Positions 37,566 through 61,801 of a stretch of DNA of 64,000 nucleotides are shown piece by piece. This DNA comes from Candidatus Heimdallarchaeota archaeon (GTDB lineage: Archaea; Asgardarchaeota; Heimdallarchaeia; Hodarchaeales; Hodarchaeaceae). The translations under genes and the position numbers were made by a program. Where the stretch lies: positions 1,077,584-1,141,583 of the forward strand of contig CP070695.1 of assembly GCA_020353515.1 (NCBI GenBank), written 5' to 3'. Under the pieces are notes generated by a model. That model made no database searches, was not told the DNA's origin, and saw nothing but the letters and a program-made list of their open reading frames with translations. Within the stretch, counting starts at the first letter, position 1; each line of letters starts with the position of its first letter.

Positions 37566-40331
37566 ATGACAGTTCTCGAGAAAAACAATTCTGAATTATG
37601 GAATCGGTATCAATCTGCTCTAGAGAATTACCAGGAATTTCATGATAGAGAAGAGGTATTAACCGAATTTCGAACAATTGTAATCTCAAAAAATCCCCCT
37701 ATTGATCTTCTTACAAAAGTAGCCAGTCATTTTCTAAAATTCAAACAGGTCGAGGATGCAAAAAAGACATTTGGACGAATCTTGCAGATAGATGACACAC
37801 ATCGAGAGACATGGAAACAATTATCCTCTCTTTACTTTAAACTCAAAGATCCGAGAAAGGGAGAGTTCTGTCTTCAAAAGTATTATTCATTGGCAGGTGG
37901 TAATCCCCAACATCTTCAGAAAGCAACTCAATTACGATTAGCTAGTTCTGGTAGATTAAAATCGTTACCAACTAACCAAGAACTCGGCCTACAAACAGGT
38001 AAACTGATACAATCCTCGTCACCTAGAAGTATCATGAACCTTGCAGATTTTGAGAAATATTTTGAAATTTCAAGACGAACCCTCCCACTTACGATCAAGA
38101 AAATACTTCAATTTGCCCAACATCAAGTTGTGGATTACCGCATTTTCAATGAACAATCTGGAGCACTGGGTTCATCGCGGTTAGAAATCTTGCAGGATCA
38201 AAAATTAATCGAATTCCTGAGAAATAAAAAGATTAATAGGTTATATCAATTTCAAGAAGAGGCCATCAAAGCAATTCTCGATTCTCATGATGTGTGTATC
38301 ACTGCACCAACTGGAAATGGTAAAACTGAGGGTTTTCTACTCCCTGCGATACTTAAGATTAGGAAGAACAAAGGATATGGAGTTCAACTTCTTCTGGTCT
38401 ATCCAATGAAGGCCTTAGCGAAGGACCAATTACGAAAAATAGAAAATTATGCTAAGATTCTGAACCTAACCGTGAAAGTATTCGATGGTGATACCTCTCA
38501 TTATCAACGGAAGAAAATCTATGCAGATCCTCCTGAAATACTAATCACTAATCCTGATATCTTACATTATCATTTGGGGATTGGAAAAAATGCTAGTCGT
38601 TTTCAGGATCTGTTAGCGGGCCTTAAGATTGTCATCTTGGATGAGATTCACACTTATTCGGGAACCTTCGGGAGTAATATGTTTTTCATTGTGAAGCGAC
38701 TTGAAAGGGTGGTTAACCATAAGCTACAATTTATTGGGGCTTCTGCGACTGTTGCCAATGCTAGTAAATTTGTTTCCCGACTTTTAGACAGGCCAATCAA
38801 AGTTATTGAATGCAAGAATGGGAAACGAGGGAAACTGCACTTCTTAATTTTGGCTCCGTTTAGTGGAATGTCTACATTAGACAGTATGATAAACTTAGTA
38901 AATAGCATTATGGGTCTTGGAAAGATTCTTGTCTTTCAAGATTCACATAGAAGTGTAGAACTACTCTATCAAAAACTCGGTGGAAAAGTTCGGAAAGTGG
39001 GGATTCACAGAGCAGGATTGGAGAGAAAAATTCGTGAGCAGGTCGAAACGGATTTCCGAGATGGTGTCCTTGATTTACTGGTAGCCACCCCGACTCTCGA
39101 ACTAGGGATCGATATAGGAGATTTAGATATCGTTGTCACCCCTCCTATTGCGGTGAATAGAGCCATGCAACGAATTGGTCGGGCTGGACGGAAGGGCCAG
39201 GAATCCCTTGCGATCATTCTATTAAATTCAGAAGATCCTATTAGCCATTATTATCTCCAGTATCCAGAACGCTATTATCAGGATATTGAGGATGTCTTTT
39301 TCGATCCTGAGAACCCTAATGTAACGGAACATCAACTGTTATGTGCCTCTCTGGACAGTCCTCTTGATTTAAGTCAAGGTGATTTTCCTCGGTATGTAAC
39401 TACCCTGCGACAGCTGGTCAATGAGAGCTTCCTTAACCAGGTCAATGCCTCTGTTTTAATGCCTACTGAAGCAGGAATGGCAAAAGCACGAAAGTATTCC
39501 ATTCGTGGACAGACTCATGAAATTCAGATTAAGTGTGGTGGACGAAGGATTGGTAAGCGTGCAATGCCTCTTGCCATGCTTGAATTATACCCTGGTGCCT
39601 TGTATTATGCTGCAGGAACTCGGTATCGAGTAGCTAGTTTTCATTTCAATGGCATGAGAGGAACTGCTCACTTAGTTAAACCCAAAAGCAGTTGGGGGAC
39701 AACCTTTCCTCTCTCTGGATTTAAACCTGAGATTGTAGATATTCATAGAAATTATCATGCTTTTGGACTCGAAGTTGCGTATATAGAGGCTAAAGTTCTC
39801 CAGACCGTCTGGGGGTATACGCTTGAATCCCCAAATGGAACATCCCAGCATCGCCTCCGTGATCCCCTTTATTATTCGTCTCGCTCTAAAGGAATACTCT
39901 TTCGATCACCCATACTTCCGCTAGATACATTGGATCTAGATCGTAACACTCAAGTTGCCTCGCGTCATACTCTAGTTCATGTGATTTTACATGCCAGTCT
40001 TCCGTTTATTGGAGGACAATTACATGAAATTAGTGGGTTGGTACTCCTCCCTCAGGGATACATCTTATTGTTTGATAATGCAGCTGGTTCTGGGGTTTGT
40101 GCTATGCTTTGTGATCATTTACAGGAATTATTTTCCCGAGCATATGATATTCTAGGATGTGATTGTAAAGCTCCTGAGGGGTGTCCTAGATGCACTTTTC
40201 TCCCTCGTTGTAGTCATAATAATACGAAGCTCGATAAATTAGGAGCTCGTTCCTTGTTAAAAAGTATTCTGGATGAAGTAAAAGTTCCCTTGGGTGATGA
40301 TTACAATCACTTTGCCCAAACCCTTCACTGA
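37566..40331 (+). CDS. Hrq1/MrfA(YprA)-family SF2 helicase with DUF1998 Cys4 domain and N-terminal TPR
   Basis: APTGNGKT, YPMKALAKDQ, TNPD, DEIH, SAT, TLELGIDIG, QRIGRAGR, CDC..GCPRC..C. Confidence 0.92.
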   Translation: MTVLEKNNSELWNRYQSALENYQEFHDREEVLTEFRTIVISKNPPIDLLTKVASHFLKFKQVEDAKKTFGRILQIDDTHRETWKQLSSLYFKLKDPRKGEFCLQKYYSLAGGNPQHLQKATQLRLASSGRLKSLPTNQELGLQTGKLIQSSSPRSIMNLADFEKYFEISRRTLPLTIKKILQFAQHQVVDYRIFNEQSGALGSSRLEILQDQKLIEFLRNKKINRLYQFQEEAIKAILDSHDVCITAPTGNGKTEGFLLPAILKIRKNKGYGVQLLLVYPMKALAKDQLRKIENYAKILNLTVKVFDGDTSHYQRKKIYADPPEILITNPDILHYHLGIGKNASRFQDLLAGLKIVILDEIHTYSGTFGSNMFFIVKRLERVVNHKLQFIGASATVANASKFVSRLLDRPIKVIECKNGKRGKLHFLILAPFSGMSTLDSMINLVNSIMGLGKILVFQDSHRSVELLYQKLGGKVRKVGIHRAGLERKIREQVETDFRDGVLDLLVATPTLELGIDIGDLDIVVTPPIAVNRAMQRIGRAGRKGQESLAIILLNSEDPISHYYLQYPERYYQDIEDVFFDPENPNVTEHQLLCASLDSPLDLSQGDFPRYVTTLRQLVNESFLNQVNASVLMPTEAGMAKARKYSIRGQTHEIQIKCGGRRIGKRAMPLAMLELYPGALYYAAGTRYRVASFHFNGMRGTAHLVKPKSSWGTTFPLSGFKPEIVDIHRNYHAFGLEVAYIEAKVLQTVWGYTLESPNGTSQHRLRDPLYYSSRSKGILFRSPILPLDTLDLDRNTQVASRHTLVHVILHASLPFIGGQLHEISGLVLLPQGYILLFDNAAGSGVCAMLCDHLQELFSRAYDILGCDCKAPEGCPRCTFLPRCSHNNTKLDKLGARSLLKSILDEVKVPLGDDYNHFAQTLH

Positions 40332-40345
40332 TTTCAAGTATAAAT
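40329..40345 (+). promoter_or_regulatory. Variant promoter motif TGATTTCAAGTATAAAT
   Basis: About 20 nt before the start (leaderless spacing); fits the consensus. Confidence 0.55.
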
Positions 40346-40363
40346 ACTGTTATCCAATATCAA

Positions 40364-41485
40364 ATGATGAGTCATAAAATGTTGAACCGAAGTATCTTGA
40401 CTGCTATCATTGGATTTCTTGTTGGTTGTTTGTTTTATTATATGGCAGATGCCAGTGTAGTCATCGTCTTAATCATGGGTTGTTCGGGGTACTTTGTTGG
40501 CCTCATTTTAGACAACGCAGACATCAAACATCAACTCGATACTTTCCATTTTTCCAATCTATCAACTCAAGAGATCTTTCAATCAGCTGATATTCCAGAG
40601 GCTCTCATATTTTATTCACCAAAAGAGAACCTTACTACTGTTTCAATTGATTTTCAAGTAGACACGAAACCCCAAACATTTCGCCTTTCTGTCTTAAAAA
40701 ATCTTCAAGAACATCAATTTCGGATATTAGAAGATTCTAGCAAAACAATGTTTAGTCTTACCCTCGATTATCCAGAATGCAATTATCCCAAGATATTGTC
40801 TTCCCCCAATCAAAAAGAGAAATTCCATTATGATATCAAGGAACATAGCTTGGACTTCCAAAATGCGATTCAAAAGATTATCCCAGGGTTAGTTCTTTCT
40901 AAAATTTCTCATACTAGTCCATTTGGAGATGTACAAATTCAGACTTTTCTTGAAACATCTCCAAACCCTTCACAATTTCCACCTCCGGCTTCCCCTTCAT
41001 TTGACAGACTGACCAGATATGATAGAGGAATTAGTCATACTAGTCTAAATGGTGCCTCTGAGGAGAATCAAGAAATTAATGAGTCCCAAATCATGGAGGA
41101 TTTGTTACCAGGGTTATCTTCTGAAATAAAAATTCCTGATCTTTCTCCAGAAGAAGTTCAGCATCTAAAAGGTTCTAATCAGCGCCAATTGGAAGTGTTC
41201 TTGAATGACAATATTGAAGTTATAAAGGAGGAGTCCTTGGAAGAAAGGCTAGCTAGCAACGAGTCTGAAACGACTGATAATATTGAAATTGATTTCTCGA
41301 AAGTTGATCAACCTGTGAATGATAGTACAAAAGAAGATTTCAATCAGGTTATCGCTAATCGAATTGAAGAAAGAACCAGAATAACCCTTAACAAAGAGAC
41401 ACCTGATCTAGAACTCCAAAAAGAACGGGAAGAAATCAAAAAAAATATTTCTGAAGAAATTAACACAGAAAGATCGCCTTTTTGA
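40364..41485 (+). CDS. Membrane-anchored hypothetical protein with acidic low-complexity C-terminus
   Basis: Two N-terminal TM helices, globular middle, E/D/S-rich tail. Confidence 0.78.
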   Translation: MMSHKMLNRSILTAIIGFLVGCLFYYMADASVVIVLIMGCSGYFVGLILDNADIKHQLDTFHFSNLSTQEIFQSADIPEALIFYSPKENLTTVSIDFQVDTKPQTFRLSVLKNLQEHQFRILEDSSKTMFSLTLDYPECNYPKILSSPNQKEKFHYDIKEHSLDFQNAIQKIIPGLVLSKISHTSPFGDVQIQTFLETSPNPSQFPPPASPSFDRLTRYDRGISHTSLNGASEENQEINESQIMEDLLPGLSSEIKIPDLSPEEVQHLKGSNQRQLEVFLNDNIEVIKEESLEERLASNESETTDNIEIDFSKVDQPVNDSTKEDFNQVIANRIEERTRITLNKETPDLELQKEREEIKKNISEEINTERSPF

Positions 41486-61326: not shown

Positions 61327-61750
61327 TTTGAATTATTCGATGGTGGAAGGATTGTAATAACCCTCGCGAAAGGAGAAACATTGTTTTTCGTAATCTGTCT
61401 TCTGGAGTCAGCGCAAATGCAGTTGATCTATCTGAATCAGGAGTGACTATGCGTACCCCCAGGCCAAGTAATCTTCCTTCAACTGTGTATATAACAAAGA
61501 ATAGTTGAAATTCAACGGGAGAGGTATTTCTACTAAATTCTTGTCTAATAAATCGTTGAGTTTGAATGGGAATTATACTTTCCAAGTATTCAATTCGATC
61601 TTTCCATTGTTCACATATGATGAAAAACTCCTCGTAGTAGTAGTTCATGAAATCAGCACTTAGAACGCTATCATATGTTCCGCATGTCAAGAAGAAGAAT
61701 AGATTCTCATATAGAAGCGATTCAGGATCCTGCACAAAATTCGACAACAT
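61304..61750 (-). CDS. Hypothetical protein coupled to the Cas4-like gene
   Basis: 148-aa ATG ORF overlapping the downstream gene. Confidence 0.7.
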   Translation of the reverse strand: MLSNFVQDPESLLYENLFFFLTCGTYDSVLSADFMNYYYEEFFIICEQWKDRIEYLESIIPIQTQRFIRQEFSRNTSPVEFQLFFVIYTVEGRLLGLGVRIVTPDSDRSTAFALTPEDRLRKTMFLLSRGLLQSFHHRIIQIECPVPI

Positions 61751-61759
61751 GGTACCATC

Positions 61760-61801
61760 TCTGAGATAGATAGGTGTTAACCAGTTATATACTCAAAATC
61801 G
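61760..61801 (-). promoter_or_regulatory. Variant promoter CGATTTTGAGTATATAA-N13-ATCTATCTCAGA
   Basis: Near copy of the radA promoter architecture. Confidence 0.65.

Follow-up and report, generated by a model that had tools for sequence, protein, structure and literature searches.

A conserved neighbourhood of XPD with specialised repair and recombination paralogues in Hodarchaeales and other Heimdallarchaeia

In eukaryotes, XPF-ERCC1, FANCM-FAAP24 and MUS81-EME1 are partnerships of active and inactive paralogues and, in other archaea, Bax1 sits beside XPB as a helicase-nuclease gene pair. [quoted passage not shown] The same source links MmcB to mitomycin C damage, states that no enzymatic activity has been demonstrated for it, and records MmcB-like proteins almost only from Alphaproteobacteria (PMC13705206). 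RadA duplications in Heimdallarchaeia have already been published, as stated in passages of Matsuo et al. 2025 (PMC12722695). Here we compare these systems with a gene neighbourhood located at positions 37566-61801 of a 64,000-nucleotide stretch of DNA (the window) from Candidatus Heimdallarchaeota archaeon, a member of the Hodarchaeales. Its genome, labelled G000, consists of one contig of 4.94 Mb (GCA_020353515.1, CP070695.1) and the window corresponds to G000:C1:1077584-1141583. Positions are those of the window unless assigned to the genome.

A first-pass annotation had proposed that this block of about 24 kb constitutes a single crosslink-repair system of "proto-Fanconi" type. The open reading frames (ORFs) that it named are all present where it had placed them, and profile and fold searches bore out the gene content for eight of the nine items listed. 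About half of the 24 kb is, by annotation, unrelated to repair and consists of surface and membrane genes, remnants of a surface gene and a lineage-only insert, which had not been mentioned earlier. We conclude, with a confidence that only slightly outweighs our doubt, that the block is a vertically inherited neighbourhood of the Hodarchaeales, looser across the Heimdallarchaeia, in which a lone XPD stands beside specialised repair and recombination paralogues, and that it encodes a modular pathway of damage or fork processing and recombination. It is probably not one operon-like machine, and no substrate specificity, crosslinks included, is deducible from the sequence. The neighbourhood is real, old and apparently undescribed, no paper on it having turned up in the literature library searched.

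For the genus, regions of 18-40 kb around XPD from ten genomes were searched with the proteins of the window. For other families, hidden Markov models (HMMs) built from the genus orthologues were compared with 43-80 kb around XPD in eight genomes and with three contigs of 7-14 kb. Families are labelled f1 (that of the window) to f7. The order helicase-TM373-TPR-Zn172-MmcB-fold-Cys91-dead Hef-XPD-RadA-giant Ig-YdjM-TM350-p145-RadB-like-Cas4-like-p148-p458, the members of which are described below, is found again in the ten genus-mates examined, protein identities being 26-90%, with one rearrangement (G001), and genus-level insertions fall only between transcription units. Since the same order recurs in all ten, the clustering exceeds what would be expected by chance. 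Conservation in relatives, the absence of which would by the first-pass annotation have counted against its proposal, is seen as gene order within the genus, and as linkage in further Heimdallarchaeia families.

In three of these further families, about 45 kb encompass XPD, the MmcB-fold gene, paralogues of RadA and Hef, a superfamily 2 (SF2) helicase and an operon for a giant surface protein that ends in a small RecA-like ATPase. For f3 (G028, G038 and G024), the RadA paralogue, MmcB-fold gene, DEAD helicase and XPD occur within 30-35 kb. For f4 (G033, G037 and G031), the RadA paralogue is next to the DEAD helicase and XPD follows about 23 kb further on; beyond XPD, G033 and G037 carry a RadB-like gene abutting Hef, with the MmcB-fold gene another 3-4 kb on, and in G031 the contig stops shortly after XPD. 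In G023 (f2), 1.6 kb separate the MmcB-fold gene from XPD, and in G041 (f6) the two genes are co-directional neighbours separated by 35 bp. Where both share a contig outside the genus (12 genomes, four families) they are 35 bp to 42 kb apart, a range that is biased towards short distances in fragmented assemblies and that holds in all of the highly contiguous ones (G028, G038, G024, G033, G037, G060 and G082). When all ORFs over 60-80 kb of G028 and G033 were compared, six shared genes only were found, and these encode the Hef-like protein, the RadA paralogue, the giant Ig protein, the MmcB-fold protein, the DEAD helicase and XPD. It might be objected that these are ordinary single-copy housekeeping genes. 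Of XPD there is indeed a single copy only; most members are extra paralogues, the genome also holding an intact second Hef and another MZB helicase, and its Rad51-family genes numbering five.

The XPD/Rad3 helicase (581 aa, 46605..48350, minus strand) carries DEAD_2 (PF06733, 33.4 bits) and Helicase_C_2 (PF13307, 68.4 bits) domains, in agreement with its earlier assignment to the XPD family, and its gene follows radA at a distance of 19 bp. No other DEAD_2 match exists in the genome. The best matches in the PDB are the XPD proteins of T. acidophilum and Sulfolobus (E 1.3e-29 to 5e-24), with FANCJ (9ej9) at E 8.6e-4, and the protein is, to judge from these comparisons, XPD-type and not FANCJ-like. 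Four cysteines occur in the region expected for the XPD Fe-S domain, as seen by eye in the translation. In three genus-mates, a second XPD-like gene, 33-34% identical to that of the block, is present at G020:C137:20466-22199, G018:C184:48222-49955 and G005:C149:291-1853, and there is none in G000. A gene for an AAA+ protein resembling the RFC large subunit or Rad17 is located directly upstream of XPD, on the same strand, in f4 (L087:3839-5419 = G033:C21:173839-175419).

A Hef/FANCM-like protein had been predicted within the block, and its family and fold were upheld, but all of the ATPase and nuclease motifs have been replaced. This catalytically dead Hef paralogue (635 aa, 42967..44874, plus strand) was identified from the NF010337 model, its AlphaFold2 (AF2) fold and a motif alignment. 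NF010337 matches at E 9e-22 over residues 70-345 only. The AF2 model, with a predicted local distance difference test (pLDDT) score of 75, aligns with the P. furiosus Hef helicase 1wp9 at Z 24.2 (438 residues aligned) and with the FANCM translocase at Z 20.5, and XPF chains are among the top ten Foldseek matches. The helicase fold and a helical insertion domain are kept. In the alignment, Walker A, DExH, motif III and motif VI are replaced in the protein and in nine orthologues, and intact Hef keeps them. The ERCC4 motif GDxnERKxxxD is also replaced, PGF...FLIL aligning with GDY...VERK of Hef (MAFFT), the HhH2 domain is gone and Pfam ERCC4 gave no match to the protein; about half of the orthologues in the genus are without the C-terminal domain altogether. 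Because Walker A, DExH and motif VI are missing, dead Hef is predicted to be unable to translocate and could not act like the FANCM translocase. It is preceded, at a distance of 5 bp, by the gene for the 91-aa cysteine-containing protein Cys91 (42686..42961, plus strand), which has no family match and is kept in ten genus-mates.

Intact Hef (756 aa) is encoded at genome positions 716288-718555 and shows Walker A, DEVH, the ERCC4 motif and HhH2. A further ORF of 239 aa at genome positions 3154098-3154670 matches the nuclease and HhH2 part of Hef only (133.7 bits), and the genome therefore encodes three such proteins, namely long Hef, this short XPF-like nuclease and dead Hef. In f3, Hef paralogues of 602 aa, directly upstream of the RadA paralogue in G028, and 600 aa, beside XPD in G024, form a family homologous to dead Hef (hhalign 99.4%); they too are without Walker A, DExH and motif VI, and intact Hef is found elsewhere in both genomes. 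G033 has two intact Hefs, one of them inside the cluster. The cluster-linked Hef paralogue is old. There is a likeness to the eukaryotic XPF-family partnerships, in that the Hef/XPF-family member of the block has lost its catalytic motifs and an intact Hef and a short XPF-like nuclease are present in the same genome. In contrast to those partnerships, the block Hef has lost both helicase and nuclease motifs and is without HhH2, its duplication lies within the Heimdallarchaeia, and it is known at the level of genes.

An MmcB-like nuclease fold was also recognised in the first-pass annotation. The fold was supported, with 3dnx as the best match, but the Pfam model does not match and the catalytic lysine is a glutamate. 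The MmcB-fold PD-(D/E)XK protein (168 aa, 42039..42545, minus strand) was assigned using its AF2 fold, Foldseek and VIA. Its model has a pLDDT of 88 and the nearest solved structure is 3dnx (Foldseek E 1.6e-5); the VIA comparison gave Z 12.9 and 3.3 Å over 126 of 146 residues, at 17% identity, and the next match reached Z 9.4. 3dnx is the structure of DUF1052/PF06319 (PMC3424549), a family now termed "MmcB-like" in Pfam. PF06319 matches none of the 13 aligned members of the protein family (E up to 1) and nothing genome-wide (E up to 10), and the family profile found no match among PDB sequences, the family having been placed by fold comparison alone. D48, E63 and E65 are invariant in 13 sequences from four families, forming an ExE with Glu at the position of the usual ExK Lys, and the catalytic D...(D/E)xK triad of PD-(D/E)XK nucleases appears to be incomplete. 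As modelled, the protein is MmcB-like in fold and not a demonstrated MmcB family member. An Fe-S reading was rejected: the sequence CxxCxxCxxxCP gave weak Fer4 matches and the cysteines are not conserved outside the genus.

A survey of 83 Heimdallarchaeia genomes found the MmcB-fold gene as a single copy in 61, and it was not found in f5 and f7 with the query used. Its single-copy occurrence in so many genomes of the class fits a core, not an accessory, gene. Caulobacter MmcB/DUF1052 is the closest solved fold, and of similar size, but the block protein carries ExE and not ExK, the identity is 17%, and the family is a core gene of Heimdallarchaeia and not alphaproteobacterial. Located 4 bp downstream of the MmcB-fold gene is that for TPR-Zn172 (172 aa, 41516..42034, minus strand), a TPR-like protein with a C-terminal CxxC...CxxC zinc ribbon, judged from a weak TPR_6 match and from reading of the sequence, and kept in seven genus-mates. 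The linkage of a small PD-(D/E)XK-fold protein to an SF2 helicase of the nucleotide excision repair type recalls the archaeal XPB-Bax1 pair. It differs in that XPD replaces XPB, the nuclease family is another one (the Bax1 fold match is weak, with Z 5.1), linkage is loose in most genomes and the association is known here from its genes.

The recombination proteins of the block include a full-length RadA paralogue (340 aa, 48370..49392, minus strand), which scores 361.3 bits against NF003301 (cut-off 259), as claimed earlier, with Pfam Rad51 and HHH_5 matches and 285 bits to P. furiosus RadA. It is one of five Rad51-family genes in the genome, sharing 37-45% identity with the other four, and it retains Walker A and B. 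In this protein and four genus orthologues, FxxA has become LKKG or LKPG and the DSP of the ATP cap has become KSP or KNP, and the FxxA polymerisation motif and the ATP-cap Asp appear to have been lost. In the other RadA copies of G000 the DSP cap is retained, as are Phe and Ala of the motif (FVTA, FITA and FETA; in the fourth it is ITA), the canonical copies following the pattern GFxTA. A genus-level expansion is represented by three canonical RadA genes that are closely related, at genome positions 1486193, 3812393 and 1429130 (300-315 bits to Pfam Rad51), and the fifth, older Rad51-family paralogue is at genome position 3961488.

In a Rad51-family tree of 31 sequences from six genomes, the XPD-linked RadA paralogues of f3, f4 and f5 form one clade with 99/99 support. 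Orthology of the window RadA with this clade, given an SH-aLRT value of 89 in a quick tree and 63/89.6 in a careful tree, is not claimed. The orthologue of the window RadA in the genome G008 (G008:C27:125811-126500, locus L067) contains an in-frame TAG and may be a pseudogene or reflect an assembly error. The five copies are in keeping with the RadA duplication published for Asgard archaea (PMC12722695). As differences from those paralogues, gene neighbourhoods are absent from the text passages retrieved from that paper, and the window copy has LKKG and KSP.

The RadB-like ATPase of the RecA superfamily (241 aa, 56404..57129, plus strand) keeps Walker A and B in alignment but scores 58.8 bits against TIGR02237, below the cut-off of 172.4, so that the earlier description as a RadB/Rad51 paralogue stands in the sense of RadB-like. 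As in archaeal RadB, the protein is a small ATPase with Walker motifs; unlike RadB it scores under the RadB cut-off and its gene sits in a surface-protein operon. The gene preceding it in that operon encodes p145 (145 aa, 55963..56400, plus strand), which has no Pfam match. The "dead RecA fold" attributed to it is unproven, the hhalign comparison with the RadB-like family being not significant; a feature and language-model search (Protein Atlas) gave a weak lead to BcsE, with a score of 0.91.

At the right end of the block lies a gene for a Cas4/AddB-like PD-(D/E)XK protein (254 aa, 60562..61326, minus strand), scoring 26.5 bits with PDDEXK_1 (cut-off 22) and 30.6 bits with TIGR00372 (cut-off 65). 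Seven orthologues share four invariant cysteines (CP...C..CEF...C) and QxxxY. The catalytic positions read GRPS and IQT in the window, and G(R/C/Q)PS and I(Q/H)(T/S) across the seven orthologues, and the protein would be without the catalytic Asp and (D/E)xK. The Cas4/AddB-like assignment made earlier is thus backed by the PDDEXK_1 score, the Fe-S cysteines and QxxxY, but the catalytic residues are replaced and TIGR00372 stays under its cut-off. The overlapping gene for p148 (148 aa, 61304..61750, minus strand) is its upstream operon partner; it is kept in six genus-mates and p148 yielded neither a family match nor a Protein Atlas match. In six genus-mates it is adjoined by the gene for p458 (458 aa, 62595..63971, minus strand), a protein with no Pfam match, which closes the conserved block in these relatives.

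At the left end, the MrfA/YprA-type DExH helicase (921 aa, 37566..40331, plus strand) has DEAD (122.7 bits), Helicase_C (56.9 bits) and MZB/DUF1998 (33.2 bits, MZB cut-off 24.2) domains and a full-length match to TIGR03817 (model positions 23-741 of 742, E 2.7e-78), all of which support the original Hrq1/MrfA assignment. It carries an N-terminal extension of about 210 aa that is TPR-like in appearance. Orthologues are present in eight genus-mates, and a TPR-bearing MrfA-like relative of 1168 aa lies 5 kb from XPD in G022 (f2). A second, plainer MZB helicase (754 aa), of which the block helicase is a paralogue, is encoded at genome positions 927495-929756. The helicase resembles that of Bacillus subtilis MrfAB (YprAB) in being a DExH helicase with a C-terminal MZB/DUF1998 zinc domain and of the non-defence YprA type. 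It differs in its N-terminal TPR-like extension, in the plainer MZB helicase elsewhere in the genome and in its neighbour: no MrfB-type DnaQ exonuclease is adjacent, and the downstream gene encodes TM373 (373 aa, 40364..41485, plus strand), with N-terminal membrane helices, an acidic tail and its own promoter motif at 40327, as judged from sequence and the motif matrix described below. TM373 has no match in Pfam, NCBIfam or PADLOC and stands beside the helicase in eight genus-mates.

To the left of the helicase, a LuxC-like acyl-CoA reductase and a weakly LuxE-like gene (28170-31170, minus strand) are present in the window, and these abut the helicase in genus-mates. The interval 31170-37566 is therefore a 6.4-kb insertion relative to most of them; it encodes a GNAT acetyltransferase, an unannotated protein of 399 aa and a surface protein of 654 aa that is rich in repeats and has numerous paralogues elsewhere in the genome.

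The small TPR, zinc-ribbon and cysteine-containing proteins that had been listed earlier are present at 41516, 42686 and 59701. For the proteins of 373, 172, 91, 145, 148, 350 and 458 aa, nothing usable was obtained from Pfam, NCBIfam and PADLOC scans (the last covering ten block proteins with a model library dated 2023), and hhalign comparison of the small and unknown protein families with every identified block family gave no significant match.

Divergent from radA is a five-gene operon that encodes, in order, the giant protein, the YdjM-like protein, TM350, p145 and, as its last product, the RadB-like ATPase. The giant is a secreted Ig-like/macroglobulin-like protein (1605 aa, 49520..54337, plus strand), with sub-threshold matches to Big_13, Big_3_3, CarboxypepD_reg and MG2, and its gene is kept in all ten genus-mates. 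It is followed by genes for a multi-pass membrane protein of the YdjM family (195 aa, 54334..54921, plus strand; Pfam YdjM E 4e-8), the start of which overlaps the giant-gene stop, and TM350 (350 aa, 54914..55966, plus strand), read from its sequence as having a signal peptide and a C-terminal membrane anchor; both are kept in ten genus-mates. Starts and stops overlap at 54334/54337, 54914/54921 and 55963/55966. The counterpart in G028 encodes a 2121-aa Ig/macroglobulin-like protein followed by proteins of 471, 211 and 211 aa, the last being a RecA-like ATPase (AAA_25/KaiC matches; hhalign 86% to the RadB-like family), and continues with the MmcB-fold gene, a gene for a 1051-aa protein and the helicase, on one strand throughout with gaps of 4-60 nt. 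In G033, the genes for an RFC-like protein and XPD come first, then those for a giant of 1704 aa, membrane proteins of 390, 259 and 227 aa, and the RadB-like protein (228 aa), which abuts the intact Hef paralogue. XPD is here directly upstream of the giant gene, 52 nt away on the same strand, and the 390-aa protein has a layout similar to that of TM350. HMMs of the giants, the 1051-aa and 471-aa proteins and other cluster proteins of G028 and G033 gave no match to window ORFs. The recurrence of this arrangement suggests that the surface-protein operon belongs to the conserved set.

Two insertions interrupt the block in the window. Between dead Hef and XPD, three overlapping ORFs (45064..46590, plus strand) are remnants of a large surface-protein gene, since a 1567-aa ORF is intact at the same place in G014; in most genus-mates the flanking genes are 13-340 bp apart. 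Of three lineage-only genes (57172..60489), with no counterpart at this position in the ten genus-mates, one codes, according to Pfam, for a CBM96 protein ending in a Cys-rich tail, another for a membrane protein of 417 aa that bears a DnaJ-type zinc module and the third for a zinc-ribbon protein of 262 aa. The CBM96 protein (57172-58314) has a membrane anchor, and its Cys-rich C-terminal tail is common to two other genome loci at 51-56% identity. In G028 (Heimdallarchaeum), the interval between the helicase cluster and XPD holds the gene (L030:11474-19414 = G028:C1:287474-295414) for a protein of 2646 aa, in which ten bacterial TSP3 repeats are combined with a Ca-binding domain of the binary-toxin B/PA type.

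A promoter motif is shared by some of the units. The radA-XPD promoter region (49430..49500, minus strand) contains the best match in the genome to this motif, the consensus of which is ATTTTGAATATATAA, followed by AATCT-N5-AGATT. The promoter of the p148/Cas4-like operon (61770..61805, minus strand) also carries the motif, and shares with that of radA the 12-mer ATCTATCTCAGA. The sequence CGATTYTGARTAT occurs in five genome copies against 1.6 expected, three of them in the window (34965, 49475 and 61801). With a weight matrix built from sites of genus relatives only, five of the 16 best genome-wide matches fall inside the 64-kb window, radA scoring 22.4 bits (the best in the genome), p148 19.0, TM373 18.5, ORF 35059 18.4 and the LuxE-like gene 18.0 bits. 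Homology accounts for part of this enrichment, since three of the five window sites are orthologues of the training sites. In six genus-mates the motif is conserved at about 90 nt upstream of radA and in five it is conserved upstream of p148; sites resembling it stand, in various genus-mates, before the genes for RadA, p148, TM373, the helicase, the MmcB-fold protein, Cys91 and the giant. It is not a general promoter element, exceeding 10 bits in 0.8% of ORF upstream regions and 0.7% of random windows. AATCT-N5-AGATT was considered as an operator and rejected: the genome has 29 copies where 17 are expected, and just two of them, one being the radA site, follow the motif. A locus with promoters resembling that of radA (G000:C1:1727773-1731354, L085:5773-9354) carries TATAAAAGGG and AATCT-N5-AGATT before genes for proteins of 289 and 881 aa, neither of which has a Pfam match, with an Arf-like small GTPase gene nearby. 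As this sole other locus with a radA-like promoter is without annotation, no theme of a regulon can be read from it.

If the genes do act in a modular pathway of damage or fork processing and recombination, XPD (5'-3') and the TPR-fused MrfA-type helicase (3'-5') would open DNA around a lesion or stalled fork. The MmcB-fold protein, adjacent to XPD in one family much as Bax1 is to XPB, might then cut, if its ExE site is active. In eukaryotes the helicase-like domain of XPF, ERCC1 and FAAP24 have scaffold or partner roles; dead Hef and the catalytically altered Cas4-like protein could similarly serve as DNA-structure-binding scaffolds or as partners of active enzymes. The non-canonical RadA and the RadB-like ATPase may modulate strand exchange by the three canonical RadA copies encoded elsewhere.

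Several observations weigh against such a pathway. The block comprises at least eight transcription units on alternating strands and tolerates lineage-specific insertions; the intervening genes differ from family to family and units can be separated by up to 30 kb of unrelated genes. Synteny in the genus continues past the block, leftwards into the LuxC/LuxE-like genes and also into HEAT-repeat genes, so that genus-level collinearity alone is weak evidence of function. The window RadA joins the XPD-linked clade in the best tree with support of 63/89.6 only. The promoter motif also precedes the LuxE-like gene (at 31124) and an unannotated small ORF (35059-35397, motif at 34963), is in G000 either weak or missing upstream of three units (those of the helicase, the MmcB-fold gene and dead Hef), and was not found in other families. 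No sequence homology was detected between giants of different families and giant surface proteins are common in these genomes, for which reasons the operon link is suggestive and not proven. Moreover, a membrane and surface operon with a RadB-like ATPase is unexplained by a cytoplasmic repair model, as it is by the proto-Fanconi idea.

The alternating strands, the synteny with genes outside the block, the tolerance of insertions at 45064-46590 and 57172-60489 and the presence of the window's prolyl oligopeptidase also beside XPD in G024 would all fit a little-rearranged region in which each gene serves its own pathway. Such historical synteny without functional coupling is nevertheless unlikely in our view, given that the six genes shared by f3 and f4 in 60-80 kb are all from the set and every intervening gene differs, that the MmcB-fold gene adjoins XPD in f6 and lies 1.6 kb from it in f2, that XPD is joined to the giant-protein operon in f4, that a rare motif is common to several units, and that the cluster-linked Hef paralogue recurs in f1, f3 and f4 while intact Hef is elsewhere. 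The opposite extreme is the original proposal, in which the 24 kb form one co-regulated interstrand-crosslink repair system, an archaeal forerunner of the Fanconi pathway with MrfA-, MmcB-, FANCM- and FANCJ-like, RadA and Rad51-paralogue subunits. The conservation of the set and the motif common to the radA-XPD, p148/Cas4-like and TM373 units are in line with it, and relatives of three members (MrfA, Hrq1 and MmcB) act on mitomycin C damage. We nonetheless judge it quite unlikely, and the first-pass interpretation borne out in part only: the Hef-like protein is without ATPase motifs and so is no FANCM-like translocase, the helicase is XPD-type with a FANCJ match at only E 9e-4, the MmcB-fold protein is unmatched by the MmcB Pfam model and has Glu at the catalytic Lys, and the motif also stands before non-repair neighbours in a block of at least eight transcription units. 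Furthermore, MrfAB is reported to be inactive on interstrand crosslinks (PMC13705206) and no MrfB-type exonuclease is adjacent. Nothing similar to the ID2 clamp or ubiquitin-ligase core of the Fanconi type was seen in the Pfam scans of the block, although no dedicated search was made for them.

In f1, f3 and f4, the giant Ig/membrane/RecA-like operon recurs next to XPD, the MmcB-fold gene and the RadA paralogue, which raises another possibility, that a surface, membrane and RecA-like module delivers or receives DNA which XPD, the helicase, the nucleases and RadA would process. In function this would resemble the Ups/Ced systems of the Sulfolobales, which mediate UV-induced DNA exchange. The overlapping starts and stops in the window operon point to coupled translation, and in f4 XPD is directly upstream of the giant gene; but no homology was found to known DNA transporter, pilus or conjugation proteins, the giants are numerous and not detectably homologous between families, and the RecA-like ATPase is nearest to RadB/RadA and not to the FtsK/HerA/VirB4 motors. 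Envelope-coupled DNA handling seems very unlikely, and it is just as improbable that the conserved set would be one envelope-to-chromosome machine coupling the surface operon to XPD, the helicase, nucleases, pseudo-enzyme scaffolds and a special RadA. An antiviral defence island, finally, could be imagined from the combination of a YprA-family helicase, PD-(D/E)XK nuclease, TPR proteins, DinG/XPD-like helicase and Cas4-like protein. Helicases of the YprA type function in DISARM, Dpd and Druantia, and a rare system known from prediction joins a TPR protein and a PD-(D/E)xK nuclease to a YprA homologue (10.1101/2025.09.15.676423). PADLOC models of BrxH, SngC and DruE match the helicase core and that of type IV DinG matches XPD at 166 bits, but these matches reflect generic SF2-core and XPD-family similarity, and six of the ten scanned proteins were unmatched. 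Neither methyltransferase nor CRISPR genes were seen within the block or along its margins, XPD is the only one of the organism, and the genes are single-copy, keep to one fixed locus and occur almost universally in four or five families, unlike patchy defence islands, all of which makes this explanation extremely improbable.

The Hodarchaeales are among the closest known archaeal relatives of eukaryotes, and eukaryotic repair uses complexes, such as XPF-ERCC1, FANCM-FAAP24 and those of the Rad51 paralogues, that pair active enzymes with inactive paralogues. The neighbourhood described here shows the same evolutionary habit in an archaeon, with a motif-dead Hef, a Cas4-like protein without catalytic residues and an altered RadA kept beside the only XPD across many species. 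If their products interact, these genes would provide compact candidates for the origin of heteromeric repair complexes, and for a nuclease that might work together with archaeal XPD. The main unexplained feature is the surface-protein operon, which is linked to the block class-wide and may hint at new biology.

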